Assembly: GCF_035285525.1 (NCBI RefSeq)
Contig: NZ_JAYKGW010000005.1
Span: 29,647 to 61,646, forward strand
Reading direction: 5' to 3'
DNA from: Okeania sp.
GTDB taxonomy: Bacteria; Cyanobacteriota; Cyanobacteriia; Cyanobacteriales; Microcoleaceae
Length of the DNA stretch: 32,000 bases
The notes below the pieces were generated by a model. That model worked only from the letters and a program-made list of their open reading frames with translations, was not told where the DNA came from and did no database searches. Made by a program: the position numbers and the translations under genes. Every line of letters begins with the position of its first letter. The first letter of the stretch is position 1. Positions 736-32,000 of this stretch are shown piece by piece.

Positions 736-1506
736 ATGTTTTTACAATGCTTTTTCGGACTTTCCTTCCTAAGTTTTCTGGTATTATCTCCTCCAGTTAA
801 TCTCCAGCAACCTACATTAAAAACTCAGGTGAAATTAAATGAGAAATTGCTTGCAGTAGAATTTCCAACCCCCCCAAGTCGAAAAAGGGCGCCAGCTAGA
901 AAGAGAGCTGGTGGGTCTCGGGGTCCATGTAGTCCTATAATCACAGAAAAATTAGGAATAGGTTTAACTGCTGTAATGCCAGAAAATAATATAGGTACAA
1001 CAGTTAGTTCTCACCCAACTGTTTATCTATATGTTCCCAAAACTAATAAACAAAACGCAGAATTTGTTCTGTATGATTTGACAAATGAAAACATAGATCC
1101 AATATATGAAACTAATATATCTTTGCCCCAATCTGCTGGAATTATCAAAGTAAATTTGCCAAAAACTGTTGAGCTACAACCTGACAATACTTATGTTTGG
1201 TATTTTGGTATAACTTGCGATCCAGACAAACCTAGCTTAGATTACTATATTCAAGGATGGTTACAACGTACTTCTTTAACTTCTGAAGTTAAAGTTAAAC
1301 TACAAAAGCTTGAAGAAAACCCATTAGAAAAAGCTAAACTATATGCTGAATTATCGGTCTGGAGTGAAACAATAACTACTTTAGAAAAATCTCGTTCAGC
1401 TTATCCTCAGGCTTGGAAAAAACTTTTTCAGTCAATAGGATTAGGAGAAATTGCAGATAGCCAAATATTTGATTTTTCAGAAGAAATACAGTCTAGTCAA
1501 AGATAA
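736..1506 (+). CDS. DUF928 domain-containing secreted protein
   Basis: 256-aa ORF with a hydrophobic N-terminal signal-like segment. It has a basic stretch followed by GGSRGPC, then a YVWYFGITCDP-type core, which I recall as typical of cyanobacterial DUF928 proteins. These are often found next to hemagglutinin-type exoprotein genes. Confidence 0.75.
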   Translation: MFLQCFFGLSFLSFLVLSPPVNLQQPTLKTQVKLNEKLLAVEFPTPPSRKRAPARKRAGGSRGPCSPIITEKLGIGLTAVMPENNIGTTVSSHPTVYLYVPKTNKQNAEFVLYDLTNENIDPIYETNISLPQSAGIIKVNLPKTVELQPDNTYVWYFGITCDPDKPSLDYYIQGWLQRTSLTSEVKVKLQKLEENPLEKAKLYAELSVWSETITTLEKSRSAYPQAWKKLFQSIGLGEIADSQIFDFSEEIQSSQR

Positions 1507-1726
1507 GAAAAAGAGTTAAATTTTCTGGAAAATTGATGTGAAAAAAACTCGATCAAGTTAGTAGATTAATTTCAATAATTAGTTAATTAAGCAATTCCTA
1601 ATCTTTTATATTACCAACATCTACTACATTAAAATATTAGAGCTTTTCTACTTTTAAAATACTATATTTAGGGTGCATAAATATGTAGGCATTCAGCCGT
1701 CAGCTATTGGTTTTGATTCTCGTTGT

Positions 1727-1826
1727 TTTTCACTCTTGATGAACCACCGGAGCCATAACCAAAATCCAGTAGGGATTTTGCATAAGGGCGTCCCTACTGT
1801 GGTTTGCCGATATCAAAACCGCTGTA
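1727..1826. repeat. Copy 1 of a ~100-bp dispersed repeat with an internal GTAGGGA...CGTCCCTAC hairpin
   Basis: TTTTCACTCTTGATGAACCAC...CATAACCAAAATC..GTAGGGA..TTGCAT.AGGGCGTCCCTACTGTGGTTT....CGCTGTA recurs at 1979-2077 with few mismatches. The three overlapping 73-85 aa ORFs here are repeat artefacts. Confidence 0.8.
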
Positions 1827-1978
1827 TTATAAGACTTCTATTGCCAACAAATTTGATAGAATTAGGAATTACACAGAAACCGGGTTTATTAACGAAGTTT
1901 TTGGTTGGAGCAACAAGATCGCGGCAATAAACCCGGTTTCTTGGTCGCTTTGCGTAACTATTGATTTTTTTACAGCGC

Positions 1979-2077
1979 TTTTCACTCTCGATGAACCACA
2001 TCACCATAACCAAAATCTTGTAGGGACGTTGCATCAGGGCGTCCCTACTGTGGTTTACTGAAATGAAAATCGCTGTA
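1979..2077. repeat. Copy 2 of the same ~100-bp repeat
   Basis: Direct alignment by eye to 1727-1826. It contains the perfect inverted repeat GTAGGGACG / CGTCCCTAC. Confidence 0.8.
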
Positions 2078-2162
2078 AAACTGTATCAGGGCTAAAGCCA
2101 TCTGAATCCAGAAACCCGGTACGAGGGTAGATTATTACTGCTCAAAACAACGATTTATCTTA

Positions 2163-2253
2163 CAGGACTTATGCAAAGGTGCTATATGTAGAGTTAAAAA
2201 ACTATTGCGCAATAGTTTTAGGCACTATATCTAGGGTCGCTGCGTAAGTCCTG
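2163..2253. repeat. Hairpin (MITE-like) element with CAGGACTTA.GCA termini
   Basis: Left end CAGGACTTATGCA pairs with right end TGCGTAAGTCCTG in 12 of 13 positions. The centre is the perfect palindrome AAAACTATTGCGCAATAGTTTT. The same termini occur at 6765-6935 and 9493-9583. Confidence 0.7.
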
Positions 2254-2305
2254 TCTTAGAAACCGGGTTTCTTTGTGTAAGTCCTATGTATAATAACTGA
2301 TAACC

Positions 2306-5300
2306 ATGAAATTAAAATCTTTATTCACACAAATTAGTTTTACATCTGGAATCTGGTTAATTGTATCAACTTTTTGGCTTCAAAAACCAGTTAATTCTCA
2401 AATAATACCAGACCAAACATTAGGTCAAGAAAACACCAAAATCAGAAATGTCGAACGATTCAAAAAACAAATAGAAGGTGGCGCGATTAGAGGCTCGAAT
2501 TTATTCCACAGTTTGCAAGAATTTAACATACAAAAAAATCAAAGTGTCTATTTCACTAACCCAATTGGAATTGAAAATATATTAACTAGAATTACAGGTA
2601 ATAATCCTAGCAATATTTTAGGAAAATTAGGAGTAGATGGAGTAGCAAATTTATTTTTAGTCAATCCCAATGGTATCTTTTTCGGACCTAATTCTACCCT
2701 AGATATTCGAGGTTCATTTATCGCCACAACAGCCGATGAAATTCAATTAGGAGAAAATGGTAGATTCAGTTCAACCAACCCTCAAAATACTAACCTATTA
2801 TCTGTAGCACCATCAGCTTTATTTTTTAATCAAATAACAAATTATAGAGGAAATATTACTAACCAATCCGCAGTAACAGGGCTAGAAATTCCCACAGGAA
2901 AAACTCTAGGTTTAGTAGGAAATAACGTCATAATTGATGGTGGAAAACTAAGCGCAGAACAAGGCAGAATCGAAATCGGTAGCGTCGATAATCAGAGTTT
3001 AATTCAACTAGAAAATACAGAAAATAATTATATTTTTGACTATTCAGAAGTAAAAAAATTTAATAATATTCAACTCAAAAATAATGCAATAGTTGATGCC
3101 AGTGGAGAAGGAAGCGGCACAATACAAATACAAGCAAAACAAATACAAATCACAGAAAAATCAACAATCCTCGCTAACACATTAGGAACTCAACCAGGAA
3201 ACAATGTCTCATTAACTGCCACCGAATCAATAGAAGTAAATGATAGCCTAGTAGATGCCAATGTTGAACCAGGTGCAACAGGCAATGGAGCAACGATCAC
3301 AATCGAAACTCCAACTTTAACACTCACAAACGGAGGACAAATCAGTACAGCAACATTTTATGCAGGAACAAGTGGAGAACTCACAGTAAACGCCAAGGAA
3401 ATAGTAATAATCGGAGCATCATCAGACGGTCAAAACCTAAGTGGTTTATTTACAGACGTTTTACCAGGAGCAAAAGGGAAAGGAGGAGATGTCACCATCA
3501 ATACTCAAAAACTGCAACTATTCAACGGAGGACAAATAGGAGCAAATGTATCAGGTGCAGGACAAGGAGGAAATCTGACAGTAAATGCTGAAGAAATAGA
3601 AGCCAGAGGTACAATACCAGGAAGCTCACCGATACCAGAACAACAACTAATACTGCAAATTTTAAACGATCAATATCCCAGTGCAATTTTAGCTATCGTC
3701 GTACCAGATGCAACAGGAAATAGTGGGAAACTAACTATCGATAGCGATCGCATTCTTTTAGAAGATGGAGCGCAAATAGGAACAGGAACATTTGGTCTAG
3801 GAAATAGTGGAGAACTGAAAATCAAAGCCACAGACATAACAATAAAAGGAACCTTTGAAGATGGACCCAGTAGTTTTTTTACTTCTGTTTTTGGAACTGG
3901 AGGTAAAGGAGGAGATCTCATAATTGAGACCCAAAGTCTGAACCTAGAAAACGGAGGACAAATCAGAGCTGGAACATCTGGAGTAGGAAACAGTGGGAAT
4001 ATAAAAATCACAGCAACAGAAATTAATTTACAAGGAAGTTCTGGTAATCGACCATTTCCTAGTAGTATTCAAGTATCTGTAGAAGATTTATTTAATCTAT
4101 TTCCTGAGTCTGTTAGTAGTGGCAATGGTGGTAACTTAAACATTGAAACTGGACGCCTCCATCTGAGCAACGGTGCCCAAATTAGAGCAGGTACATCAGG
4201 TAAAGGTAAAGGTGGAAACTTGACTATAATAGCTAAAGATATTGAGCTGGATGGTGGTGATGATCGTGGGGTTCTCTCAACGAGTATACTTGCTGGTGTC
4301 GAGGATTTAACCATATTCTCTATAGGTCAAGGTCAAGCAGATGGGGGTAATACTCTGATTCAAACAGAACGCTTAACAATTTTAGATGGAGCTAAAGTTA
4401 GTACAACTACTGAAGGCAGTGGTAGAGCTGGTAATCTTACTATTAATGCCACTGATAACGTTACCCTTTCTGGAGTTAATTCTGTTTTTGGTAACAAGAG
4501 TGCTATTACTGCTAGCAGTGAGTTAGGAGCTACGGGAGCAGGAGGAAATATCAATATTAGTACCCCGACTCTCAGTCTTAGTAATGATGCTGTCATTACT
4601 GTCAGCAGTTCTGGTAGTGAAGCAGCAGGTGCCCTTTCTATTAATGCTTCATCTATTGAACTCAATAACGGTACTCTGAGTGCAGAAACCACTGCTGGAA
4701 ACCGAGGCAACATTAGCATCCAAGGGTCAAAAATTAATCTGCAAAATCAAAGTCAAATTACCACTAATGCTACGAATACGGCGACAGGTGGAAATATTCA
4801 GATTGAGAGTAAATTTTTAATTAGTTCAGACGGTAGCAATATTAGTGCTAATGCGATAGAAGGTCAAGGTGGTAATATTTTTATTAGTGGAGAAGGAGTG
4901 TTTCTTGATAACAGTAGTCAAATTACTGCCACTTCAGATTTAGGTATTGATGGTTCAGTAGAATTAAATACCCAGGTAGATCCGACTCAAGGAATAGTAA
5001 AATTATCGACGACGGTGATAGATGTTGAGTCATTAGTGGCAAATAATTTATGTAGAGCAACAACCGAAGGAAGTTCTTTTGTGATTACAGGTAAAGGAGG
5101 TCTACCCCCAGATCCTACTCAACCATTGACAATATTGAGGGGAATTGTCGAATGGGAAACTAATACACCAGAAGACATTGGCATCTCTCATTATCAAAAA
5201 CCAGTGGTGGTTTACCGTCGGCAAGAAAATCAGCAGTTACCAGAGATTCGTCAGGCAATGGGTTGGGTGATAAATGAATCTGGTCAAGTAACTCTGACAT

Positions 5301-5368
5301 CTACTCCAAATAATGTTAATTCGGTTAGTCCACAGTTAATTCATCCTGAGTGTTATCTATTTTTTTAG
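2306..5368 (+). CDS. Filamentous hemagglutinin N-terminal (TPS) domain exoprotein, TpsA-like
   Basis: 1020-aa ORF with an N-terminal signal-like segment. The TPS-domain signature is present (...ILTRITGNNPSNILGKL...LFLVNPNGIFFGPNS...), followed by long degenerate beta-helix-type repeats (GG.I....SG.G.GG.L.I.A..I.L). The C-terminal motif FVITGKGGLPPDP is typical of cyanobacterial members. Confidence 0.88.
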   Translation: MKLKSLFTQISFTSGIWLIVSTFWLQKPVNSQIIPDQTLGQENTKIRNVERFKKQIEGGAIRGSNLFHSLQEFNIQKNQSVYFTNPIGIENILTRITGNNPSNILGKLGVDGVANLFLVNPNGIFFGPNSTLDIRGSFIATTADEIQLGENGRFSSTNPQNTNLLSVAPSALFFNQITNYRGNITNQSAVTGLEIPTGKTLGLVGNNVIIDGGKLSAEQGRIEIGSVDNQSLIQLENTENNYIFDYSEVKKFNNIQLKNNAIVDASGEGSGTIQIQAKQIQITEKSTILANTLGTQPGNNVSLTATESIEVNDSLVDANVEPGATGNGATITIETPTLTLTNGGQISTATFYAGTSGELTVNAKEIVIIGASSDGQNLSGLFTDVLPGAKGKGGDVTINTQKLQLFNGGQIGANVSGAGQGGNLTVNAEEIEARGTIPGSSPIPEQQLILQILNDQYPSAILAIVVPDATGNSGKLTIDSDRILLEDGAQIGTGTFGLGNSGELKIKATDITIKGTFEDGPSSFFTSVFGTGGKGGDLIIETQSLNLENGGQIRAGTSGVGNSGNIKITATEINLQGSSGNRPFPSSIQVSVEDLFNLFPESVSSGNGGNLNIETGRLHLSNGAQIRAGTSGKGKGGNLTIIAKDIELDGGDDRGVLSTSILAGVEDLTIFSIGQGQADGGNTLIQTERLTILDGAKVSTTTEGSGRAGNLTINATDNVTLSGVNSVFGNKSAITASSELGATGAGGNINISTPTLSLSNDAVITVSSSGSEAAGALSINASSIELNNGTLSAETTAGNRGNISIQGSKINLQNQSQITTNATNTATGGNIQIESKFLISSDGSNISANAIEGQGGNIFISGEGVFLDNSSQITATSDLGIDGSVELNTQVDPTQGIVKLSTTVIDVESLVANNLCRATTEGSSFVITGKGGLPPDPTQPLTILRGIVEWETNTPEDIGISHYQKPVVVYRRQENQQLPEIRQAMGWVINESGQVTLTSTPNNVNSVSPQLIHPECYLFF

Positions 5369-5446
5369 GAAATAGCAAATGAGGACGCAGGGAAGGGGAG
5401 ACACGGTGACACAGAGATAGATGGATATAGGTCTAGAAACTAGGTC

Positions 5447-5481
5447 TAGAAACCCGGTTTCTTAAAGAAACCGGGTTTCTT
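5447..5481. terminator. Pair of near-palindromic AGAAACCCGGTTTCT / AGAAACCGGGTTTCT hairpins between convergent genes (possible bidirectional terminator)
   Basis: 5448-5462 and 5467-5481 are reverse complements of each other and each is self-complementary. They lie between the 3' ends of the TpsA-like gene (+) and speE (-). The same motif is dispersed at about 1876, 1930, 2108, 2258 and 10573-10600, so it is also a repeat family. Confidence 0.4.
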
Positions 5482-5483
5482 TA

Positions 5484-5586
5484 TCTCCCCATCTCCCCAT
5501 CTCCCCATCCCCCCATCCCCCCATCTCCCCATCTCCCCATCCCCCCATCCCCCCATCTCTCCATCTCTCCATCTCCCCGTCTCCCA
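5484..5586. repeat. Octamer microsatellite (CTCCCCAT / CCCCCCAT / CTCTCCAT), about 12 units
   Basis: Read directly: TCTCCCCATCTCCCCATCTCCCCATCCCCCCATCCCCCCATCTCCCCAT... Confidence 0.9.
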
Positions 5587-5600
5587 AATTCGGTTCTATC

Positions 5601-6527
5601 TCAAACCTTAATATCTTGCGGTGGATTTTTCAAAGTGTATATCTGAGTTTCTGCGGCGATCGCTTGTCGTAAATTCAAAGGTATTCGTGACATACCCAAT
5701 AAAGAAATACCATCCATCAGCTTAAAACCACCTGTAGTTTTTTCTAACAATAAACTGTCTACTTTTTCTGGGTTTACTTGAAGAGAAAATTCTCGATCAG
5801 AACTAACCACAAACCCCAGTGGACAACCATAACTTGTAGCGTAAGGCGCTACCGAATGAACATAATTAAACACAGTTTGTAAAGTCTTGACTACACGGAC
5901 ATGAAGATACATTTCAGGAGGAGATATTGAACCTGCTTGTATTATAAATAAGCCGTCAGCAGACAAAATGTTGCGAATTTTTTGAAAGTATTCCTGAGTA
6001 AATAAAGGAAAAGAAAGACCTTCTTCAATAGGATCTGTCAGATCGGAAATAATTACATCCCAAGTTTCTAAAGAAGACTCTAAAAAATTCTGAGCATCAT
6101 CAATGATTAATTCTAAACGGGGATCTTCAAAAACATTTTGGTGCATTTCCGGAAAATACTTTTTGCAAGCTTCTACAACTTCCCCATCTATGTCAACCAT
6201 AACTACTTGCTCAACAGTTTTCCAGCGTAAAACCTCTCGTACTGTTGCTCCTTCTGCTCCTCCAAACACTAAGACTTTCCGTGGAGAACCATGAAAAATC
6301 ATAGGTGGATGCACTAAACATTCATGGTAAAGAAATTCATCTTCAGTGCAAGACTGCCACTTACCATCTAATATTAAAGCTTTGCCATAAACACCTTCGA
6401 CTATAAACATTTCCTGATATTTTGTTTTTTGATGAACAAGCATTTTGTCGATACCATGTTTATACACATCCCAGGGTGTAATTTGTTCAACAAAATACAA
6501 ACTTGTATTCAGATTAGCACCTGCCAT
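5601..6527 (-). CDS. speE: Spermidine synthase / polyamine aminopropyltransferase
   Basis: 308-aa ORF with the family pattern: ...LDGKWQSCTEDEFLYHECLVHPPM..., then the Gly-rich SAM-type motif VLVFGGAEGATVREVL, then VVMVDIDGEVVEACKKYFP and DVIISDLTDP. Confidence 0.85.
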   Translation of the reverse strand: MAGANLNTSLYFVEQITPWDVYKHGIDKMLVHQKTKYQEMFIVEGVYGKALILDGKWQSCTEDEFLYHECLVHPPMIFHGSPRKVLVFGGAEGATVREVLRWKTVEQVVMVDIDGEVVEACKKYFPEMHQNVFEDPRLELIIDDAQNFLESSLETWDVIISDLTDPIEEGLSFPLFTQEYFQKIRNILSADGLFIIQAGSISPPEMYLHVRVVKTLQTVFNYVHSVAPYATSYGCPLGFVVSSDREFSLQVNPEKVDSLLLEKTTGGFKLMDGISLLGMSRIPLNLRQAIAAETQIYTLKNPPQDIKV

Positions 6528-6764
6528 TGATTATTTTCTTCCTCTTAAACTATAGCAATCTTAAATTGGTTTTAACATTTTATCATAGGGTTTAGTCTCC
6601 AAATCTCAATCCACTCAGTATAGCGCTGCGCGCATGGAACAGGGAACAGGTATGGAGGAAGAATGAATAGCTTAATAATATAAGGTTTTTAGCTATTGGA
6701 CACCTCCGGCAATTTGTAAATATTAAGTGCGCACATTGCGATAATCTTGCCAAATTAATTTCTT

Positions 6765-6935
6765 CAGGACTTACCCATGATCGAGGAGTTTTAGCCATTT
6801 GGGATTGCTTTCATGAGGTCATGTTCCGCAAACATGTCGCGGACCGTTAACGTGGGTTTTGCACTCCGCATAACGCTGTCGCTTGCACTGCGAGTCGCGC
6901 CATGATAAAAATACCTTGCGCGTGCGTAAGTCCTG
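6765..6935. mobile_element. MITE-like element with perfect 10-bp terminal inverted repeats CAGGACTTAC / GTAAGTCCTG
   Basis: TIRs at 6765-6774 and 6926-6935. The interior shares CCGCAAACATGTCGCG with the repeats at 15087-15276. No coding capacity. Confidence 0.55.
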
Positions 6936-7072
6936 TTTTTATTGAAATAAGGAACAGGGAACACAGAAGGTGGGAATAGGGAGAAATAATTGATAATTTA
7001 TGGATAAGATTGGAGATTTATAGTAGAATGTTTAATTAATTTTGAAATATTCAATATGGGTCAAAAATAACC

Positions 7073-7324
7073 ATGCAAATTTTTCGTCAATATATTGCTC
7101 CATTAATCGTAGTAATCATATTTTTACTAGCTATGGTTGCAGTCAGCGCTCGTATATTTTTACCAGGAGATTTAGCAGCACCAGCTCCGACAGAGGAATT
7201 AAGTTCTCTTCCAGTTCAGTATTACAGCACAAAAATATTTAATAAAAACTATGTTAATTATTTCCCGGATCAAATTTTTATTAATATTAACTTTTTCCCT
7301 CATAATTTTTCTATACTTTCCTAA
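7073..7324 (+). CDS. Possible small membrane protein (hypothetical)
   Basis: ATG ORF with one clear TM helix (YIAPLIVVIIFLLAMVAVSARIF). The 3' part overlaps the next, better-supported ORF by 74 nt and becomes low-complexity, so the true extent is uncertain. Confidence 0.25.
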   Translation: MQIFRQYIAPLIVVIIFLLAMVAVSARIFLPGDLAAPAPTEELSSLPVQYYSTKIFNKNYVNYFPDQIFININFFPHNFSILS

Positions 7325-8000
7325 TTTCACATTTTCCAAAGTTTATGCTCAACTTATTTCCTCACCCGAAATAACAGCATTAGATCCTATTTTTGATAAT
7401 CCTAAAATTTATTCTTTTGTCCAATCAGGATTTAATTATAGTCAGGAACTTTACGGTCAACCCAAAATACCAGTAAAAAAGGTTAATTTAAACTTAAATA
7501 CAACTGCTTTAACTTCACTTGATGATCCAAATCAAGCAAAATTTACTATATATTTAAGTCGTAAACCATCTGAATATGCTTTCCACGGTCAATTAGCTCA
7601 CGAAATATTTCACCTATTAAATGCAGAATTACTTGATTGTTATGCAGAAGGTTTAGCTACTGTTTTTGCTGAGAAAATGTTAACCCGTAATAACTTAAAT
7701 TGGAATGGATGGGAACAATATTTTCAACAAGGTTACGAACCTTTTTATGGTTTAAGTTACTTGATGATGAAAGAAGTTAGTGAAACAGCAGGTGCAGCAA
7801 ATATGAGTCGTTTTCTTGACTTTGTTGTTACCAATAACTCCGATGAAAAATGGATGGATGTTGATATTGATCAATGGTTATCTTCAATGTCCGATAATGT
7901 CAAAAATGAGGTAAAGAAAGTGATTAATAAACATATTATTCAAGTCAAACAAGTAGTTGAATCAAATAATCAGAAATACACTTGCTTCAGCCCTGGTTAA
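7251..8000 (+). CDS. Hypothetical secreted protein with an HExxH (zinc-metallopeptidase-like) motif
   Basis: 249-aa ORF with a signal-peptide-like N-terminus ending ...SKVYA/QL, and the HEIFH motif in ...FHGQLAHEIFHLLNAE.... No family recognised beyond the motif. Confidence 0.6.
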   Translation: MLIISRIKFLLILTFSLIIFLYFPNFTFSKVYAQLISSPEITALDPIFDNPKIYSFVQSGFNYSQELYGQPKIPVKKVNLNLNTTALTSLDDPNQAKFTIYLSRKPSEYAFHGQLAHEIFHLLNAELLDCYAEGLATVFAEKMLTRNNLNWNGWEQYFQQGYEPFYGLSYLMMKEVSETAGAANMSRFLDFVVTNNSDEKWMDVDIDQWLSSMSDNVKNEVKKVINKHIIQVKQVVESNNQKYTCFSPG

Positions 8001-8180
8001 ATAAATTCAAAAGTAAGAAGTAAGAATTCAAAAGTAAGAAGTAAGAAGTAAATTGCTTCTTTCCACTAAATAATCACTAATTGCTGATAGCTGACAGCTA
8101 ATAGCTGCTTGCGTAGCATTCCGTAGGAAATGCTTACATATTTTTTTATTCTTTATTCCATTGCACTAAATCAAATAACT

Positions 8181-9077
8181 ATGATTTTTCGTCAAAAAAA
8201 CTGGGTTCAACTACTGCTCACTATAAAAGGTTCTGTCATACCTCAAATCTGGCCAAAAGTATTAATTACAATGATTTTTGCCTTAATAATTACTATCATT
8301 TATAAGAGTGGATTAACTTGGATACATCAGCCAACTTTAGTTAGTTTAATTCCTAGTGTCGTCTTAGGTTTATTATTAGTTTTTAGAACTAATACATCTT
8401 ATGACAGATTTTGGGAAGGACGAAAAGTTGTTGGTGGCATCATAGTTTCATGTCGCTCTTTGTCAAGGCAAATATGGGTAAATGTTCCTGAAAAAACTCC
8501 AGCAGATACAGAAGAAAAAAAAGCAGTAATTCGACTTTTAGCAGGATTTTTAATTGGTACAAAACTACACTTGAGAAATGAAAATATAGATCAAAAACTT
8601 CAGTCAATTATTAGCGAAAATCAATATCTAGAACTGACAGAAGTTAATCATATTCCTCTGAGAATAACTAAATGGATTGGTGATTATTTCCATCAGTTAT
8701 ATAACCTTAATTATATAGACAGTATTCAGCTTTCTACCTACAATCAAATTTTAGACTCAATGGTAAAAGATGAAACTGCCTGTGAAAGAATTTTAAATAC
8801 ACCTATACCACTAGCCTATGCAATTCACTTAAAACATTTATTATTTCTTTACTGTTTTGCTTTACCCTTTCAAGTAGTAGCTCAGTTATCTTGGACTACT
8901 ATTCCCGCTGTGGGAGTAATTAGTTTTGCCCTATTAGGAATTGAAGCAATAGGATTAGAAATAGAAAATCCTTTTGGTTACGATCCTAATGATTTACCAT
9001 TAGACAAGATGTGTGATAAACTATTGTTTGATATTGAAGAATTATTGATTTCTAAATCTCCCAAAGAATATTTATAG
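8181..9077 (+). CDS. Bestrophin-family (UPF0187/YneE-like) anion channel, paralog 1
   Basis: Carries the family signature FRTNTSYDRFWEGRK, four hydrophobic helices and a C-terminal IENPFGYDPNDLPLD. Start moved to ATG 8181 (MIFRQKNW...) because it aligns with the start of paralog 2. The ORF-track start at 8130 remains possible. Confidence 0.82.
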   Translation: MIFRQKNWVQLLLTIKGSVIPQIWPKVLITMIFALIITIIYKSGLTWIHQPTLVSLIPSVVLGLLLVFRTNTSYDRFWEGRKVVGGIIVSCRSLSRQIWVNVPEKTPADTEEKKAVIRLLAGFLIGTKLHLRNENIDQKLQSIISENQYLELTEVNHIPLRITKWIGDYFHQLYNLNYIDSIQLSTYNQILDSMVKDETACERILNTPIPLAYAIHLKHLLFLYCFALPFQVVAQLSWTTIPAVGVISFALLGIEAIGLEIENPFGYDPNDLPLDKMCDKLLFDIEELLISKSPKEYL

Positions 9078-9644: not shown

Positions 9645-10568
9645 ATGACTGTCGATCAAAAAAATTGGCTCCAATCACTGTTAACCTTAAAAGGCTCCGT
9701 TATACCTCAAATTTGGCAAAGAGTAGTAATTGCAATGATTTTTTCTGCAATAATAACTATCTTTTATAAAAATGGATTTACTTGGATAAATCAATCAGCT
9801 TTAGGTATTTTAATTCCTAGTGTCGTATTGGGTTTATTGTTAGTTTTTAGAACTAATACATCTTATGACAGATTTTGGGAAGGTCGAAAAGTAGTTGGTA
9901 GCACCATAACTTCAAGTCGCTCTTTGTCAAGACAAATATGGGTAAATATTCCTGAAAAAAATCCAACAGATACAGAGGAAAAAAAAGCAGTAATTCAACT
10001 TCTAGTAGGATTTTTAATCGGTACAAAACTACACTTGAGAAGTGAAGCTCTAGATGAAAAACTTCAATCAGTTATTAGCGAACATCAATATTTAGAACTG
10101 AAAGAAGTTAATCATATTCCTTTGAGAATAGCTAAATGGATTGGAGATTATTTCTCTAAACTATATGACCAAAATTATATAGATAGTATTCAGCTTTCTA
10201 CCTATAACCAAACCTTAGATTCTATGGTAAAAGATTTGGGTGTTTGTGAAAGAATTTTAAAGACACCTATCCCACCAGCTTATGCAATACACTTAAAACA
10301 TTTATTATTTCTTTATTGCTTTGCTTTACCTTTTCAATTAGTAGCTCAGTTATCTTGGATGACTATTCCTGCTGTAGGAGTAATTAGTTTTACTCTATTA
10401 GGAATTGAAGAAATAGGAATAGAAATAGAAAATCCTTTTGGTTACGACCCTAATGATTTACCTTTAGATCAGATGTGCGATAAATTATTGTTAGATATAA
10501 AAGAATTATTTACTTCTGACTCTTGTAAAAAATATTCAGTCGATGTAGAAAATTCTCCTTCAAATTAG
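9645..10568 (+). CDS. Bestrophin-family anion channel, paralog 2
   Basis: 307-aa ORF colinear with 8181-9077. It has the same FRTNTSYDRFWEGRK and IENPFGYDPNDLPLD motifs. By eye, roughly four fifths of residues are identical to paralog 1. Confidence 0.87.
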   Translation: MTVDQKNWLQSLLTLKGSVIPQIWQRVVIAMIFSAIITIFYKNGFTWINQSALGILIPSVVLGLLLVFRTNTSYDRFWEGRKVVGSTITSSRSLSRQIWVNIPEKNPTDTEEKKAVIQLLVGFLIGTKLHLRSEALDEKLQSVISEHQYLELKEVNHIPLRIAKWIGDYFSKLYDQNYIDSIQLSTYNQTLDSMVKDLGVCERILKTPIPPAYAIHLKHLLFLYCFALPFQLVAQLSWMTIPAVGVISFTLLGIEEIGIEIENPFGYDPNDLPLDQMCDKLLLDIKELFTSDSCKKYSVDVENSPSN

Positions 10569-24766: not shown

Positions 24767-25300
24767 TTGCGAGCAATTATTATTAGTTTGGTAGTAGTAA
24801 TAATCTGTGGTTTAATTTTGCTTATTGCTCAAATTACAGGTTCTGAAAAAGGTGTAGTTGCTACTCAAAATACATCAGGAACTCAAGAGCAAATAGCAGA
24901 AAATACTAAACTAAATTCAACAACAACAACGGAAAATATTATGGCTCAAAATAACGAAGAAGTTACTACTGAATCTGGTCTTAAATATGTAGTTTTGCAA
25001 GAAGGAGATGGCGCTACTCCTCAAAAAGGTAACACAGTTGTGGTTCACTATACTGGTACTTTAGAAAATGGTACTAAGTTTGATAGTTCTCGCGATCGCA
25101 ATCAACCTTTCTCTTTTAAAGTTGGTGTCGGCCAAGTTATTAAAGGTTGGGATGAAGGTGTAGGTAGTATGAAGGTTGGTGAGCGTCGTAAGTTGACTAT
25201 TCCACCAGAATTAGGATATGGTGCTAGCGGTGCGGGTGGGGTAATACCTCCTAATGCTACTCTGATTTTTGATGTGGAATTATTGAGAATTGCAAATTAA
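24767..25300 (+). CDS. FKBP-type peptidyl-prolyl cis-trans isomerase with N-terminal membrane/signal anchor
   Basis: Canonical FKBP domain [82 protein letters not shown]...[14 protein letters not shown]. The TTG start at 24767 lies 7 nt after a strong AGGAGG box. Confidence 0.92.
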
Positions 25301-25309
25301 TTAAGTATT

Positions 25310-25349
25310 CAGCTATCAGCTATCAGCTATCAGCTATTAGCTATTAGCT
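25310..25349. repeat. Heptamer satellite (CAGCTAT / TAGCTAT)n
   Basis: CAGCTATCAGCTATCAGCTATCAGCTATTAGCTATTAGCTC immediately after the FKBP stop codon. Confidence 0.9.
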
Positions 25350-25407
25350 CTGAGGAATTATAATTATTAATTAGGGAATAGAGACTTGTTTTCTATTCCC
25401 TTTTATA

Positions 25408-25732: not shown

Positions 25733-25984
25733 TTTTTAGTTTTATATCAAAGCTTTATTAATTAAATCAAAATTAATCTTGACGAAAAAAGTAGACTTCA
25801 AATATATTAACTTAAACTTCCTCCTTTAGGTTTGAATAAAATTGCTCAAAGCTAATAGCTGAATGTTTACAGCATTCCTAAATTGGTTTTAACAATTTTT
25901 ATAACAGTTAATCTGAGGTGAAAATTTTTAAAATTCTAACTCCTGATTTCCCACAAAATATTACAACTTAGATAGGATTATTAT

Positions 25985-26542
25985 ATGTCAAATCTCACAG
26001 TTAAAGATTTAGAAATACTGCAAGATAATCTTAATAAATTAGATTTAGATTATCAATTAGAATTAGATGAAGGAAAGATATTAGTTATGAGTCCGTCGGA
26101 TATTATTTCTAGTGAAGTTGGCGTTCAATTAATTAGATTATTAGGTAATTGGGTTTACCCGCGTCGTCTCGGACGTGTGTTTGATTCTAGTGGTGCTTTT
26201 ATTCTTCCAGATACTAATTTAAAGGTTCCTGATGTTTCTTTTGTTCGTGCCCAACGTTTGAAAAAAAGTGTTCGTTATTTTGGGGAGTTGGTGCCAGATT
26301 TAGTAGTAGAAATTAAGTCTCAAAGTGATAGAATTAAACCTTTAAAACAGAAAATAAAGAAGTATTTAGAGTTAGGAGTAGAAGTAGGAATATTGATCGA
26401 TCCTGACAAAGAAATAGTTATTATTTATCGTCCTAATAGTGAAGAAATAGAGTTAAAAAATGGAGATATTTTGACTATTCCTGAATTATTTGGTGAGTGG
26501 GAATTATCTATTGTTGAACTTTGGCCTCCTGTGTTTGAATAA
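25985..26542 (+). CDS. Uma2-family (DUF820) restriction-endonuclease-fold protein
   Basis: 185-aa ORF with the family pattern: ...ELDEGKILVMSP...; VPDVSFV; and the PD-(D/E)xK-like block LVPDLVVEIKSQSD followed by KKYLELGVEVGILIDP. Confidence 0.8.
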   Translation: MSNLTVKDLEILQDNLNKLDLDYQLELDEGKILVMSPSDIISSEVGVQLIRLLGNWVYPRRLGRVFDSSGAFILPDTNLKVPDVSFVRAQRLKKSVRYFGELVPDLVVEIKSQSDRIKPLKQKIKKYLELGVEVGILIDPDKEIVIIYRPNSEEIELKNGDILTIPELFGEWELSIVELWPPVFE

Positions 26543-27453
26543 AGCTTTTAGCTATTAGCAATCAGCTATCAGCTTTTTGATGAGTTAATTCAAAATTTGT
26601 TTAAGAAAATTCATATAATAATCCTCAACGATTTGTGATAAAAACTGTATGGGTTTGTTCTCTATGATTGGGTTTGGAGAGTAAACCCCTACGATAAAAT
26701 ATTACAAGCTATTTTAAGATTACTATATTAATTGAAAAGCTATTTATTTATCTTAAAAAATTATCTGAAATATATCAATAATAATTTCTGACTTCAAGAT
26801 AATATTATCAGCATTTCCTGGGGAATGCTGGGCAAACAGCTATTATACCAATTACCAAAAATAATGCTATACTTCAGCAATACTTCAACAGTTAATAGTT
26901 ACTAAGATTAAAAGTTTTTTTTGAGAATTATTAGTCGGTTAGTAATTATTTTTCCGGCTTTTTCTCTCCCCACATCTCCCACACTTCTCCATCCAATCAT
27001 ATATAGCATTCATGCATGAGAAATGGTATTAGCCATCAGCTATTCCTGCGGAATGCTATGGAAACAGCGATAAAATCTTTTGATCAAAGATGGGGTTTAA
27101 ATGAATATAGACTTTAGAGTTGATTTTTGTAGTAAGATTTTTCGTTTCTCAGTCAATAAAGCTTTTATCACTTACTAAACTTACTAAAAGCAATAGTTGA
27201 TAGTTAACAGGTTTTTACCGAAGAATTAATAATTAAATAATTAGGTATTTTGCTACAAATTTTCTATAATCATAATTGTTAAATTTATTATCAACATAAT
27301 TAGCTATAAAATCATGCTTTTTAATTAGTTAAATTCTGACAAAGTAACTGCATTGACAGTTATCAGTTAAATATTTTTTCTAGCTTTAGCAGAACAAAAA
27401 AGTAAAAATTAAACTTCTGATTTATGATTTCTAAGTTCTGATTTTAATTTAAT

Positions 27454-28056
27454 ATGTCTAAATCTAATTTCTCTTACATTCAACTTTTTAGACACAAATT
27501 TAACCGACTGGTTTCGATTAGTTTGTTTTTACTAACTTTAACTATTATATTGTCTTGGAGTTGGATATTACCTAGTTACACTCAGACACCTACACCTAAT
27601 GTTCAAAGTCGGGAAAGTTTAATTCAAGAAATTAAAGATTATGCTGAACGTCATGTTGAAAATGATAAGGCAATGGATAGTAGGTTAATGATTGATTTAT
27701 ATGAGAAAAATTCTGTGGGTTTAAGTACTCCAGAAATTACTAAAATTTATGAGGAAGAATACACAAAACTCAAAGAGGCAAAAGATAGTAATCTCTGGGA
27801 AAGAATAAAGGATGATTTATTTTATGGGTTGTCTTGGTTTGCTGCAATAGTATTTTTGATACTGTTTATTTTTAAAGAAGCTATACAAGGTTGGGCAACT
27901 AATTTAACTAATACTTTTGGGGACTGGTTATACAATCAAATTTCTGGTCTGGAATTATTTTGGAATTACTCTCTAAGACGCTATAAAAAAGGTCTCATTA
28001 ATAAACACGAAAAACTCAAAATTCCTTTTCGTCCAAATCGTCCTTTAAGTCTATAA
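27454..28056 (+). CDS. Fragment 1: N-terminal bitopic membrane domain (2 TM helices flanking an ~80-aa loop)
   Basis: TM1 is LVSISLFLLTLTIILSWSWIL and TM2 is LSWFAAIVFLILFIF. The basic juxtamembrane tail is ...LRRYKKGLINKHEKLKIPFRPNRPLSL. Confidence 0.6.
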   Translation: MSKSNFSYIQLFRHKFNRLVSISLFLLTLTIILSWSWILPSYTQTPTPNVQSRESLIQEIKDYAERHVENDKAMDSRLMIDLYEKNSVGLSTPEITKIYEEEYTKLKEAKDSNLWERIKDDLFYGLSWFAAIVFLILFIFKEAIQGWATNLTNTFGDWLYNQISGLELFWNYSLRRYKKGLINKHEKLKIPFRPNRPLSL

Positions 28057-28065
28057 GAAGTTTAT

Positions 28066-29277
28066 GTGGATTTGCAATTTTTGGAAAAAGCTAATAATGA
28101 ACCAATTAATTTTTCTGAGATTAAAAAATATCATCGTTTGACTATTAAGGGGCAACCTGGTTCTGGAAAAACACTTTTATTAAAATATCTGGTTCTTTCT
28201 TGGGCGAGTCAAAAATTAAACAGTTCCTCCAATGAATATGTGCCGATTTTATTAGAATTATATCGCCTCAATGAAATAGAAATTTCTGCCCTCAATATCG
28301 AAGCATTAAAACAGAAATTAGTAGAAGCTTTAGATAGGGATGATTTTCCAAAAGCTAATTCTTTTGTCGAACAAAATCTCAAAAAAGGAAAATTATTTCT
28401 ATTATTTGATGGCTTAGATGAAGTGAAAAGTTTGATTCGCACTGAAGTTGTAAAAGCTATTAATGACTTATTAGATAAATACGATAAATGTCGAACAATT
28501 ATTACTTGTCGGGCAGCAGTTTATCGGAATGATTTTGCCAAATCAGTCGATAAAACATTAGATATTAAAGAATTTAGCGACAGACAAATGCGACTCTTTT
28601 TAGAAGCATGGAAATCGGAAATGCCACCCGAAAAATCTATCGATCAACTCATACAAACTTTGAGAGATAGACCTCTAATTATGGAGTTAGCAAGAAATCC
28701 TTTAATGTTGACTATTGTTGCTCATCTTTATACTCAACCTGCCTTTATTTTGCCTCAGTCTCGGTCAGATTTTTATCAAGAATCTACTCATATTTTATTG
28801 AATCAATGGCAGAATAATTTTAATCAATATAAAGAGAGCGCTCATAAACGGAGAGTTTTACAACATTTGGCTTTATTTGCTCAAGATAATGCTAGTAAAC
28901 AACAAAAAAATGACTTAAGTTTAGATTATCAAATTGTCTTAAAACAAATTAGAAAAATTTTACCTAATTTGAATCTTAATCCTGAAACAGATACTCAATC
29001 AATATTAAAAGAAATTGTCGAACGTAGTGGATTATTATTGGAAATTGAAAGAGGAGATAAATATCAATTTGCTCATTTAACTTTGCAAGAATATTTTGCA
29101 GCAACAGCTTTGAGAGATAGAGAAAATGAGTTAATAGAAAGGTTTAAAAATGACCCCGAACGTTGGCGAGAAACTGTTAAACTTTGGTGTGGTTTTGCCG
29201 GGAATAGTACGAATTTAATAGAAGTTATTTATCACGAAGATTCTCTCATAGCTTTTGAATGTTTAGCCGATGCTTAA
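28066..29277 (+). CDS. Fragment 2: NACHT-type P-loop NTPase domain
   Basis: Walker A GQPGSGKT (28150-28173), Walker B LFLLFDGLDE, then TCRAAVY, ARNPLMLTIVAHLY and FAHLTLQEYFAA. These are hallmark NACHT / winged-helix blocks. Confidence 0.8.
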   Translation: MDLQFLEKANNEPINFSEIKKYHRLTIKGQPGSGKTLLLKYLVLSWASQKLNSSSNEYVPILLELYRLNEIEISALNIEALKQKLVEALDRDDFPKANSFVEQNLKKGKLFLLFDGLDEVKSLIRTEVVKAINDLLDKYDKCRTIITCRAAVYRNDFAKSVDKTLDIKEFSDRQMRLFLEAWKSEMPPEKSIDQLIQTLRDRPLIMELARNPLMLTIVAHLYTQPAFILPQSRSDFYQESTHILLNQWQNNFNQYKESAHKRRVLQHLALFAQDNASKQQKNDLSLDYQIVLKQIRKILPNLNLNPETDTQSILKEIVERSGLLLEIERGDKYQFAHLTLQEYFAATALRDRENELIERFKNDPERWRETVKLWCGFAGNSTNLIEVIYHEDSLIAFECLADA

Positions 29278-29292
29278 GAAGTTTCTCCTATT

Positions 29293-29772
29293 TTGGTAGA
29301 GAAAATTATTGAAGAGTTTAAGCAAAAATTGGCAGAAGTAAATTATGATGAAAATTTAGCTAGAGCTTTTGGAGCAGTCGCTTCTGATGTTCGGGAAAGA
29401 GGTAGGGGAAAAGTTGTTTTTGAGTTTCTAGAAAATGCTTTGAAAAATTCTGAATCTTTAGAAGTTCGTAAAGCATCTATTAAGGCTTTATCTAAAACAA
29501 ATTTGCCACAAGCGGCGAATATTTTGTTTAATTATTATATGGATATTGATTTGGAAGATGCTCGTTTAGCACTTATTAATATGGGAGATATTACAGTTTC
29601 TTTATTGAAGGGTTTGGCAGAGAAAGGTTCGGAAACAGCAATGAGAGATTTAGTGAAAATTGGTACTCCCTATTCGAGAGAAGTTTTAAATAATTTACTA
29701 TATCATTCTGATGAGAATATTCAGAGGTTAGCTGCTTTAAATATTGCGGAATTTAGGAGTTTAAATAATTAA
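29293..29772 (+). CDS. Fragment 3: HEAT/armadillo-like helical repeat region
   Basis: Helical-repeat-like segments ...ALKNSESLEVRKASIKALSKTNLPQAANIL..., ...GSETAMRDLVKIGTP... and ...HSDENIQRLAALNIAEF. This is the usual C-terminal partner of cyanobacterial NACHT proteins. Confidence 0.55.
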   Translation: MVEKIIEEFKQKLAEVNYDENLARAFGAVASDVRERGRGKVVFEFLENALKNSESLEVRKASIKALSKTNLPQAANILFNYYMDIDLEDARLALINMGDITVSLLKGLAEKGSETAMRDLVKIGTPYSREVLNNLLYHSDENIQRLAALNIAEFRSLNN

Positions 29773-29792
29773 GTTTTCTAGAAGTAGGAAAT

Positions 29793-30593
29793 ATGGCAAA
29801 AGTTGATAAGGAATTTAATTTAAAAGATTGGGAATGGATAGCAGTTCATTTTCCAAAATCAGAAAGAGAAACTATGGCAAGAGTAGCTTGGTTGGTTTGT
29901 TCTAAATGTACTCCTGAAGAAATTTATCAGTATAATCTTGACCCAAGAATAGTTATTCCTTTGTGTGCGATACTATTGCTTGATAAAAAAGATTTTTTAG
30001 AGTTAAAAAACTTTCCCAAAAGCAAAGAAAAAGAAATTGATAGCTATTTGGCAATTTTAGAAAAATCAGAGAGAAAACAAGAAAATTATAATAGAGTCAA
30101 ACAAGAATTTATTAATCCAGCAATTAATTCTATTAATCCTAGTAAAAAATGGCTATCTCTGTTTCAAACTTTGGATATATATTTACAATTTTCCTTACTT
30201 TATAGCTTTATCAAATATCGTCGTATAACCCGTAATGATTGGCGTAATATTTTTCTAGATATAGAAAATTTAAGTATTAATTTTTATTTTTTAGTTGTTT
30301 TAATAATATCTCTAAGAGTAATAATGATATCAGATAATCAGTTAAATTCCTCTACAATTAAACAGATAATACTCTTATTTTTGCTCTTAAGTGGGCTTCT
30401 TTTATGGATAGTTTTACTATTTATTTTTTTCTGGAAAACAACCCTATTAGTTAAAATAATAAGTTTAGTTGCTTGCTCAATATTGTGGATTTACGGACAA
30501 AATATATATCGCAAACTTACTAATCCTCTGAGGAAAATTTTCCAATCTAATATTTCTCGAAGTCTAGCAAACCTAGATAGATTTAATAACTGA
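29793..30593 (+). CDS. Hypothetical protein with soluble N-terminal half and 3-4 C-terminal TM helices
   Basis: 266-aa ATG ORF 20 nt after fragment 3, with AGGAAAT just upstream. The hydrophobic segments are FYFLVVLIISLRVIMI, IILLFLLLSGLLLWIVLLFIFFW and LLVKIISLVACSILWIY. No family recognised. Confidence 0.55.
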   Translation: MAKVDKEFNLKDWEWIAVHFPKSERETMARVAWLVCSKCTPEEIYQYNLDPRIVIPLCAILLLDKKDFLELKNFPKSKEKEIDSYLAILEKSERKQENYNRVKQEFINPAINSINPSKKWLSLFQTLDIYLQFSLLYSFIKYRRITRNDWRNIFLDIENLSINFYFLVVLIISLRVIMISDNQLNSSTIKQIILLFLLLSGLLLWIVLLFIFFWKTTLLVKIISLVACSILWIYGQNIYRKLTNPLRKIFQSNISRSLANLDRFNN

Positions 30594-30899
30594 AGATTAG
30601 TAAATAAAAAATTATTCTCAATCTGAAAAAGGAATAAATATTAAAGTTCACAATCTGAAATTATCCTGACAAAAATATTGCTTGATTTAACTGACTTTCT
30701 CAAAACATTCGATAAGCGATCGCTCTTTAAATTTCACCCTTTATTTATTCCTAAATTCTCACTTTCTTTAATATATAGAAATAGCGATCGCGAAGCGGAA
30801 CGGAGTTTTATCCCTCTCTAATATTTCATCTTTTAAGGATTGGTAATTTAGGTAGAAAATTAATAGCTGAAGAGGCGATCTCCCTCAAAACTATCTTTT

Positions 30900-31006
30900 G
30901 TTGAATAAAAAGTCATGTGTATAGGCGAACAAACCCAGTTAAATATTATCATATCAGAAAAATTGTCAGGGCGCAACCCCTAAATCCTTCGATGCGCGGA
31001 TTTTTT
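30900..31006 (+). promoter_or_regulatory. Conserved ~107-nt element, copy 1: mini-ORF (30915-30983, 22 aa) plus hairpin and U-run
   Basis: GTTGAATAAAAAGTCATG.GTATAG.CGAACAAACCCAGTTAAATATTATCATATCAGAAAAATT... The hairpin is AAATCC(30982-30987)/GGATTT(30998-31003), followed by T6. Repeated at 31177 and 31692. Confidence 0.55.
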
Positions 31007-31021
31007 CAGGAGCTTCAGAGA

Positions 31022-31153
31022 ATGAGAATACTGATAATTTTCTGCTCAAGAGTGGTATGGAAAGATTTGAAGAGGAAGAAACACTATTCATGGGTGCTTC
31101 ATAAAATGAAAATATTTCTGGTATTGCTCTTGAGAAAATTCCCGAATATTTGA
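31022..31153 (+). CDS. Small ORF, 43 aa (MRILIIFCSRVVWKDLKRKKHYSWVLHKMKIFLVLLLRKFPNI), cassette 1
   Basis: GGAG box lies 9 nt upstream of the ATG. It is colinear without indels with the 41-aa ORF at 31817. Of the codon differences between the two copies, 7 are synonymous (ctg/ttg, ttc/ttt, aag/aaa, cat/cac, ata/atc, ctc/ctt, ttg/ctg). The ORF-track version starting at GTG 30917 reads through the terminator and is rejected. Confidence 0.4.
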   Translation: MRILIIFCSRVVWKDLKRKKHYSWVLHKMKIFLVLLLRKFPNI

Positions 31154-31176
31154 TTGTCTCCTGGCCATAAAATTAA

Positions 31177-31287
31177 GTTGAATAAAAAGTCATGCGTATA
31201 GACGAACAAACCCAGTTAAATATTATCATATCAGAAAAATTCTGAGAACGCAACCCCTAAATCCTTCGACGCGCGGATTTTTTTTTT
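31177..31287 (+). promoter_or_regulatory. Conserved ~107-nt element, copy 2 (mini-ORF 31192-31245, 17 aa; hairpin plus T10)
   Basis: Near-identical to copy 1. It is followed by GGGAG and a small ORF truncated after 8 codons (31303-31329, MTMLVIFH*), i.e. a decayed cassette. Confidence 0.55.
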
Positions 31288-31691
31288 CGGGAGTTTCAGA
31301 GAATGACAATGTTGGTGATTTTCCATTGAGGAGCTTAGATGGAAAAATTTAATGATGGGAAAATATGGATTTAGCGATCGCGAAGCGGAACGGAGTTCTA
31401 TCGCTCTCGCGGAACATAGTTCTATAACTTCCTAATATTTCATTCTTTTCAGTAGATTCTAATTTTGAAGATTTAGAAAAAAGCTGACTGCCGACTGTCG
31501 AAAACTTATCGAACTTCTTTTGTGAGAAAGCAACTGAAAATTCTTTGACACGGCGAATTTTTTGGGAGCTTCACACTCAGGAAAATATTCGTACTCTTCT
31601 ACTTAGGAGAAATAGATGGAAAGATTTGAGGAGAGAAAAACTACCATTTCTAGGAGCTTAACAAAACGCAAATTTTGGCCTAGGAAAATAG

Positions 31692-31800
31692 GTTGAATAA
31701 AAAGTCATGCGTATAGACGAACAACCCCAGTTAAATATTATGATATCAGAAAAATTGTCAGGATGCAACCCCTAAATTCTTCGGCGCGCCGATTTTTTTT
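31692..31800 (+). promoter_or_regulatory. Conserved ~107-nt element, copy 3 (mini-ORF 31707-31775, 22 aa; GC-rich hairpin plus T8)
   Basis: Same element. The terminator region is changed to AAATTCTTCGGCGCGCCGATTTTTTTT and can still form a hairpin (TCGG/CCGA). Confidence 0.55.
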
Positions 31801-31816
31801 AGGTAGCTCTTAGACA

Positions 31817-31942
31817 ATGAAAATATTGGTGATTTTTCAAAGGAGAGATAGATGGAAAGATTTGATTAGGAAAAACAACCATTTCCCGGAGCTTCACAAA
31901 ATGAAAATCTTTCTGGCATTGCTTCTGGGTAAATTATTTTGA
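31817..31942 (+). CDS. Small ORF, 41 aa (MKILVIFQRRDRWKDLIRKNNHFPELHKMKIFLALLLGKLF), cassette 3
   Basis: Homologous to 31022..31153 in the same frame. An internal second GGAG-N9-ATG lies at 31887-31903. A further copy of its 5' end (31959-32000, identical to 31801-31842) runs off the window. Confidence 0.4.
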   Translation: MKILVIFQRRDRWKDLIRKNNHFPELHKMKIFLALLLGKLF

Positions 31943-32000
31943 TGCTGGGATTTTTTTTAGGTAGCTCTTAGACAATGAAAATATTGGTGATTTTTCAAAG

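Follow-up and report, generated by a model that had tools for sequence, protein, structure and literature searches.

Four open reading frames (ORFs) follow one another on the + strand near the end of a 32,000-nucleotide (nt) stretch of Okeania sp. DNA (contig NZ_JAYKGW010000005.1; hereafter "the window"), at positions 27454–28056, 28066–29277, 29293–29772 and 29793–30593, separated by spacers of 9, 15 and 20 nt. These are the co-directional frames, with the same coordinates and gaps, that a first-pass annotation made from the letters alone had listed, and all four are deposited as separate proteins at NCBI. That annotation, however, read them as a four-part module, whereas we find two genes: ORF1, ORF2 and ORF3 constitute a single reading frame, broken only by TAA codons at 28054–28056 and 29275–29277, while ORF4 lies in a different frame. 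The first-pass annotation had hinted at the shared frame by speaking of a "conceptually repaired" product. The main features are as follows.

27454–29772, + strand: gene A, encoding two transmembrane (TM) helices around a loop, then NACHT and HEAT; 772 codons with two in-frame TAA (one frame; intact orthologs)
28054–28056, + strand: first in-frame TAA, CAA>TAA at ortholog Gln201 (ortholog alignment)
29275–29277, + strand: second in-frame TAA, CAA>TAA at ortholog Gln608 (ortholog alignment)
29793–30593, + strand: gene B (ORF4), split-off C-terminal module (homology to fused relatives)

A search with the joined ORF1–3 product returned intact proteins of 770–774 amino acids (aa), mostly of exactly 772, with 80–90% identity at 100% coverage, from Okeania and related Microcoleaceae including Dapis and Trichodesmium. 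Gln occupies both stop sites in 11 of the 11 aligned orthologs and, because the three ORFs also share a frame, we assign 27454–29772 to one gene carrying two CAA>TAA nonsense mutations relative to its 772-aa orthologs. With these two lesions, the full-length protein cannot be made here, and the window copy lacks the uninterrupted coding sequence expected of a NACHT STAND NTPase. Programmed readthrough or recoding was considered and rejected, as the context common to both TAA codons, TAAGAAGTTT, is merely ancestral Gln-Glu-Val/Ile coding sequence, and as the stops of five other genomes (see below) lie at different positions and hence define no conserved recoding site. We note also that the source, Okeania, belongs to the Oscillatoriales and not to the Nostocales, where the locus had initially been placed.

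Gene A encodes a STAND NTPase of NACHT-HEAT type whose N-terminal module has two TM helices, and the parts of this protein can be located in the window as listed here.

27454–28053, + strand: ORF1, N-terminal membrane module (hydropathy, charge counts)
aa 1–18 of ORF1, + strand: basic N-tail (charge counts)
27508–27579, + strand: TM1 (hydropathy)
27580–27816, + strand: acidic extracytoplasmic helical loop (hydropathy, charge; three helices in the model of a fused homolog)
27817–27873, + strand: TM2 (hydropathy)
27874–28053, + strand: basic juxtamembrane helix region (hydropathy, charge)
28066–29274, + strand: ORF2, NACHT NTPase module with NBD, HD1, WHD and HD2 (Pfam NACHT, 58.8 bits)
28150–28173, + strand: Walker A, GQPGSGKT (motif search)
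28393–28422, + strand: Walker B, LFLLFDGLDE (motif search)
28501–28512, + strand: sensor-1, ITCR (motif search)
28690–28719, + strand: NPL motif of HD1, ARNPLMLTIV (motif search)
29068–29103, + strand: WHD His motif, FAHLTLQEYFAA (motif search)
29293–29772, + strand: ORF3, HEAT-repeat region up to the natural gene A stop at 29770–29772 (Pfam HEAT_2)

The two hydrophobic segments of ORF1 (aa ~19–42 and ~122–140) enclose a loop of 79 aa, in agreement with the two TM helices around an extracytoplasmic loop of ~80 aa that had been proposed from the sequence, and net charges of +4 for the N-tail, −6 for the loop and +6 for the region after TM2 fit a predicted topology with the N-terminus inside, the loop outside and NACHT inside. 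The earlier description of this anchor as "bitopic" does not hold, as two TM helices flank a conserved extracytoplasmic domain which, in the homolog model, is a confidently folded three-helix unit. ORF1 had no match to Pfam at E < 0.02, SLATT models included. The first-pass annotation had suggested searching the locus with the Pfam NACHT and HEAT models, and both score above their gathering cut-offs: NACHT (PF05729) in ORF2, with E 7.5e-16 and 58.8 bits (cut-off 26.7), and HEAT_2 in ORF3, with E 9.9e-9 and 35.8 bits (cut-off 27.7), the latter borne out by paired helices at residues 604–776 of the homolog model. Every one of the NACHT hallmarks named in that annotation (Walker A, Walker B, the NPL motif and FAHLTLQEYFAA) is present in ORF2, and these motifs, together with sensor-1, are invariant across the aligned orthologs. 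All gene A orthologs terminate in ...SLNN*.

Gene B can be divided in the same manner.

29793–30248, + strand: conserved soluble helical domain (AlphaFold2, AF2)
30249–30500, + strand: variable hydrophobic region of 3–4 helices (hydropathy)
30501–30590, + strand: basic tail with a TNPL motif (ortholog alignment)

This division (aa 1–152 soluble, then 3–4 hydrophobic helices) agrees with the soluble N-terminal half and 3–4 C-terminal TM helices first described for ORF4, and the AF2 model of ORF4 alone places the soluble domain at aa 11–150, with a predicted local distance difference test score (pLDDT) above 90. By homology, ORF4 corresponds to the last ~400 aa (residues ~780–1157) of fused relatives of 1,000–1,300 aa: BLASTP with ORF4 or its ortholog against fused Xenococcus and Calothrix homologs gave alignments to residues ~780–1140, with E-values of 6e-11 and 1e-10, and when the 120 best NACHT homologs were searched with a profile of ORF4 homologs, 66 matched at their C-terminus, including those of Archangium, Methylobacter and Verrucomicrobiales. 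In the split forms the homolog lies directly downstream, as in Okeania SIO3B5, where a 388-aa ORF4 ortholog is found 20 nt downstream of an intact 772-aa gene, and in Desmonostoc and Nostoc, where the gene that follows split forms of 771–780 aa is homologous to ORF4 (E 5e-56 and 4e-39). Thus, the association of ORF4 with the NTPase, for which the first-pass annotation had weighed chance adjacency, is genuine. In a neighbour-joining tree, the split forms of Okeania and Nostoc group in a single clade that lies within the fused forms, and at least three more clades of split length are found in other parts of the tree, with five parsimony changes in all; it follows that fusion is ancestral and that fission between HEAT and the C-module has recurred, such that the split between gene A and gene B is both old and recurrent.

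We define the family to which these genes belong by an N-module, NACHT, HEAT and a C-module, either fused or in an adjacent gene, with the family motifs DW.WI, DPR.VIPLC, DWRNIF and NPL; the window locus has all parts of this doubly anchored TM-NACHT-HEAT-TM arrangement. Normally the family is a single chain that runs through TM, periplasmic three-helix domain, TM, NACHT, HEAT, helical module and variable TM array, and it is found in cyanobacteria, myxobacteria, methanotrophs and Verrucomicrobia, with at least 259 clusters when grouped at 50% identity. Of 1.84 billion representatives, 259 matched the N-module alone at E ≤ 1e-3, always in an N-terminal position and mostly in proteins of 1,000–1,300 aa, and its loop domain is conserved from cyanobacteria to proteobacteria. 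NACHT is present in 43 of the 44 long matches, the sole long match without it (P0199) being an internally deleted family member; as no other architecture was found among these matches, the N-module is specific to this family. P0199 itself is a metagenomic protein of 621 aa, in which the N-module and Walker A run directly into the last part of HEAT and the C-module, with most of NACHT missing.

The AF2 model of a fused Calothrix protein (P0031; pLDDT 84.8, predicted template modelling score 0.73) consists of TM1, the three-helix extracytoplasmic domain (pLDDT 83–96), TM2 with juxtamembrane helices and the NACHT module, followed by the HEAT helix pairs, a confident helical C-module at residues 795–954, five long hydrophobic helices and a short tail. 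Foldseek matches this model to NOD2, NLRC4 and NLRP3 at E 7e-12 to 1e-9, so that the NBD-HD1-WHD-HD2 fold is documented on the homolog P0031 and not on the window copy; a sequence search of solved structures gave only weak P-loop matches to NLRP14, NLRP5 and NLRP3. No enzymatic or adaptor effector domain was found in the family. The first-pass annotation knew of no assigned function for this architecture, and we likewise found no paper on it; literature searches for TM-NACHT-HEAT-TM proteins yielded nothing beyond a general remark on "TM regions" by Kibby et al. (bioRxiv 10.1101/2022.07.19.500537; Cell 2023), who list such regions as one class of bacterial NACHT sensor domain.

Two individual relatives are worth describing. 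In Calothrix sp. NIES-4071 (AP018290.1; locus L007, 3463–10474), tandem fused paralogs of 1163 and 1157 aa, 47 nt apart, lie downstream of a TacA1-like antitoxin gene, and the predicted viral contig IMGVR_UViG_2872861354_000001 encodes at 4857–8063 a 1068-aa relative (36% identity, 65% G+C) with one N-terminal TM helix, no extracytoplasmic loop and four C-terminal TM helices.

The fate of the locus was followed in 14 related genomes that contain it, or 15 when the window is counted. Gene A is intact in 8/15, rearranged at its 3′ end in 1/15 and disrupted in 6/15, and the lesions are all different.

Window: Q201* and Q608*
O. hirsuta: deletion and W158*
Dapis M229: E373*
Okeania KiyG1: frameshift and E520*
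T. erythraeum IMS101: E573* (TAA, position 5711 of locus L025; finished chromosome NC_008312.1, 2218910–2229219)
Okeania SIO2F4: duplication and frameshift

As gene A is independently disrupted in six of 15 genomes, we infer that it is dispensable and that the window carries a recently inactivated allele of it; the window copy is probably non-functional. Gene B is open in 14/14 genomes, at 229–437 aa and 20–27 nt downstream of gene A, including in T. erythraeum IMS101, where the 380-aa ortholog is open despite the stop in gene A. Its two N-terminal blocks, last helix and TNPLK tail are conserved, while the hydrophobic region is hypervariable, ranging from ~2 to ~7 helices where gene A is ~90% identical, which may reflect diversifying selection or relaxed constraint. 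In Okeania sp. SIO1I7 (locus L016), gene A diverges past residue 739 and is accompanied by two ORF4-like stretches (6204–7031 and 7271–8209), a layout that suggests local duplication or rearrangement of the C-module gene.

Taking these observations together, we think it reasonably likely that the window holds a recently inactivated two-gene copy of a widespread, doubly membrane-anchored NACHT-HEAT family whose intact members act as NLR-like membrane switches. In an intact protein, membrane segments would anchor the NACHT-HEAT unit on either side, autoinhibition would be lifted by a cue from the membrane, the envelope or the cytoplasm, and NTP-dependent oligomerisation would then cluster the TM helices, with membrane permeabilisation or depolarisation, and so cell dormancy or death, as the output in a conflict or defence setting. 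We propose a membrane output in place of an enzymatic effector because the family has no effector domain; neither its input nor its output can plausibly be sought anywhere but in or across the membrane. A conflict role, and with it a membrane-acting role in defence, is plausible: we count in its favour the BREX system that adjoins a family member in Nostoc ATCC 53789, the restriction-modification pair and integrase that adjoin another on a Nostoc HK-01 plasmid, the 36%-identical relative on the predicted viral contig, which sits between a Gp3-like recombination directionality factor and a deoxynucleoside monophosphate kinase, the tandem paralogs of Calothrix, and the TM class of Kibby et al. 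Toxin-antitoxin genes were also found near family members in two loci.

Several results weigh against this interpretation. The PADLOC search that the first-pass annotation had recommended gave no significant match for the window ORFs, which, like their cyanobacterial homologs, produced only chance-level matches (PtuA, mad8 and HEAT-ARM_XIII; E ≥ 0.002), and none of the NLR-like or Avs models matched any window ORF or relative; partial matches to candidate models were seen in two distant relatives (PDC-S60, E 2e-7; PDC-S73, E 2e-4). The NCBIfam model of EruA (NF058535) scores 33–53 bits against a cut-off of 1000, with only the NACHT core aligned. About half of the sampled contexts are housekeeping in nature (the Okeania group, Methylobacter, Nodosilinea and Crocosphaera), inheritance of the locus is vertical in three genera, and the HEAT region shows good conservation between phyla, which is not the behaviour of an antigen sensor that evolves fast. 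Pore formation is a purely speculative step: a fold search of the Protein Data Bank with the ORF4 model gave no match (best E 1.4), and the TM helices have no obvious pore-lining polar residues. With respect to inactivation, the pairwise ratio of non-synonymous to synonymous substitution rates (dN/dS) is ~0.2–0.3 for all pairs, and pairs with the window (0.23–0.30) behave like intact orthologs, while the private changes of the window (20 synonymous, 18 non-synonymous and two stops) likewise resemble those of intact lineages. Neither measure thus detects relaxed selection on the window gene A, so that either the stops arose recently or the pieces are still functional. Each stop falls at a module boundary and is followed in frame, 9 and 15 nt downstream, by GTG and TTG, respectively, and the ORF2 and ORF3 pieces could still be expressed.

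A bolder version of the switch, which we consider unlikely, is that the family forms a distinct class of constitutively membrane-embedded bacterial NLR, in which the conserved extracytoplasmic three-helix domain and the C-terminal TM array, with its rapidly diversifying length, would sense the envelope or membrane (cues could be phage membrane proteins, or damage from injection or lysis, for example), and NACHT oligomerisation would produce a resistosome-like channel, from one chain or from separate parts.

Equally doubtful in our view is a physiological reading unrelated to defence, in which the family members would be transmembrane receptors that respond to signals from the envelope or periplasm, for instance in membrane or envelope stress or in filament physiology, with the three-helix domain as sensor and NACHT-HEAT as cytoplasmic signalling platform. 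The loop domain is indeed conserved between cyanobacteria and proteobacteria and folds confidently, inheritance is vertical with housekeeping neighbours in several lineages, no defence model matches, some sources label family members as "signal transduction protein", and some TM-type NACHT proteins may, according to Kibby et al. (bioRxiv 10.1101/2022.07.19.500537), sense signals within the membrane or in the periplasm. Such a receptor, however, would have no output domain and no conserved partner gene except ORF4, its gene is often pseudogenised and its TM array is hypervariable in length, and a conflict system would better account for the expansion of paralogs and for the defence-island or prophage settings that are occasionally seen.

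The module boundaries at which the stops fall raise the further prospect, to which we give little credence, that the locus has undergone functional further fission, the stops having turned gene A into three co-translated subunits (membrane anchor, NACHT NTPase and HEAT piece) that would still work with ORF4 as a four-chain complex. The first stop lies exactly between the TM2/juxtamembrane region and NACHT and the second exactly between WHD-HD2 and HEAT, GTG (28066) and TTG (29293) follow in frame close behind them, there are no frameshifts, the ratio of private non-synonymous to synonymous changes (0.9) resembles that of intact lineages, and natural splits between HEAT and the C-module have arisen several times in the family. 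No other member, however, is split at the ORF1/ORF2 and ORF2/ORF3 boundaries; the TTG is a weak start without a clear ribosome-binding site, and the N-terminal strand that the NBD needs lies three codons after the first stop, ahead of the GTG. Short N-module matches, which might have revealed natural fission at the ORF1/ORF2 boundary, end at scattered positions, several with frameshift-like tails, as fits fragments or pseudogenes, and the clearly destructive gene A lesions of five related genomes indicate that loss is common. Finally, a sequencing or assembly artefact, with both TAA codons as base-call errors in an intact gene A, is very improbable even though an open frame is only two single-base changes away and the rest of the gene looks constrained, as the NCBI and Logan assemblies of the contig contain the identical four ORFs, two independent stops are unlikely to arise from substitution errors, and related genomes, the finished T. 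erythraeum IMS101 chromosome among them, have nonsense mutations of their own.

Around the two genes, the order histidine kinase, phasin, FKBP, (Uma2), gene A and gene B is kept across Okeania, Dapis and Trichodesmium, and the other genes of the window are housekeeping genes, among them MalQ, RodZ, CdsA, a decarboxylase and a histidine kinase. The first-pass annotation had placed the locus in an accessory stretch dense in miniature inverted-repeat transposable elements (MITEs); flanking repeats are present, but a MITE island or accessory stretch is contradicted by the gene order common to three genera and by the housekeeping neighbours. Uma2 is dispensable and was rejected as a part of the module, since it was undetected in 3 of the 13 related loci that retain the upstream flank and is duplicated in another. 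Heptamer-type tandem repeats (CAGCTAT / TAGCTAT) lie on both sides of the Uma2 gene, at 25299–25352 and 26538–26577, with inverted copies at 25837–25873. Downstream of ORF4, positions 30770–32000 are repeat-rich non-coding DNA, with a ~116-nt element in three copies (at 30893, 31170 and 31685; 89–91% identical), repeat families of 35–84 nt and GCGATCGC (HIP1-like) sites. Elsewhere in the window, a DUF928 protein (736–1506) and a 1020-aa protein with a two-partner-secretion (TPS) domain (2306–5368) may form a secreted filamentous exoprotein locus at 736–5368, and two tandem bestrophin paralogs occupy 8130–9077 and 9645–10568 (Bestrophin_2, E ~1e-92 each).

The current picture of bacterial NLR-like proteins is of soluble sensors in the cytoplasm that carry a fused enzymatic or adaptor effector, and the family described here is a variant among them that has not previously been characterised. 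Like the "TM regions" class of bNACHT proteins, it has a full-motif NACHT core, C-terminal superstructure-forming repeats (HEAT) and TM segments, and is abundant and paralogous in multicellular cyanobacteria; it differs from that class in its membrane segments at both ends, its lack of any enzymatic or adaptor effector domain, the conserved helical domain that lies outside the cytoplasm between its N-terminal TM helices, and a conserved helical C-module, often a separate gene, and the family has no match to the NLR-like or Avs models of PADLOC. EruA, a NACHT-containing antiphage protein, has the NACHT core segment in common with the family (E 1e-8 to 1e-14), but only ~160–260 of the 1318 positions of its profile (NF058535) align, and hence the two are not the same family. 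With animal NLRs (NOD2, NLRC4 and NLRP3) the family shares the NBD-HD1-WHD-HD2 fold, at Foldseek E ~1e-11 for the homolog model, and the ADP-contacting WHD histidine motif FAHLTLQEYFAA, but at 12–16% identity, with HEAT for leucine-rich repeats and integral anchoring for soluble CARD/PYD effectors. ZAR1-type plant NLRs oligomerise to give a membrane channel from their N-terminal helices as output. The likeness to these CC-NLR resistosomes, which also have no enzymatic effector, is one of analogy only, as ZAR1 is an NB-ARC protein of the AP-ATPase clade and not a NACHT protein, and is soluble until activated, whereas the family is constitutively membrane-embedded. The broken window copy is of value for leading to the family and for illustrating how gene loss and fission recur, not as a working system; if the proposed switch is real, the intact members would be either a bacterial counterpart of channel-forming resistosomes or a genuine transmembrane NLR receptor.

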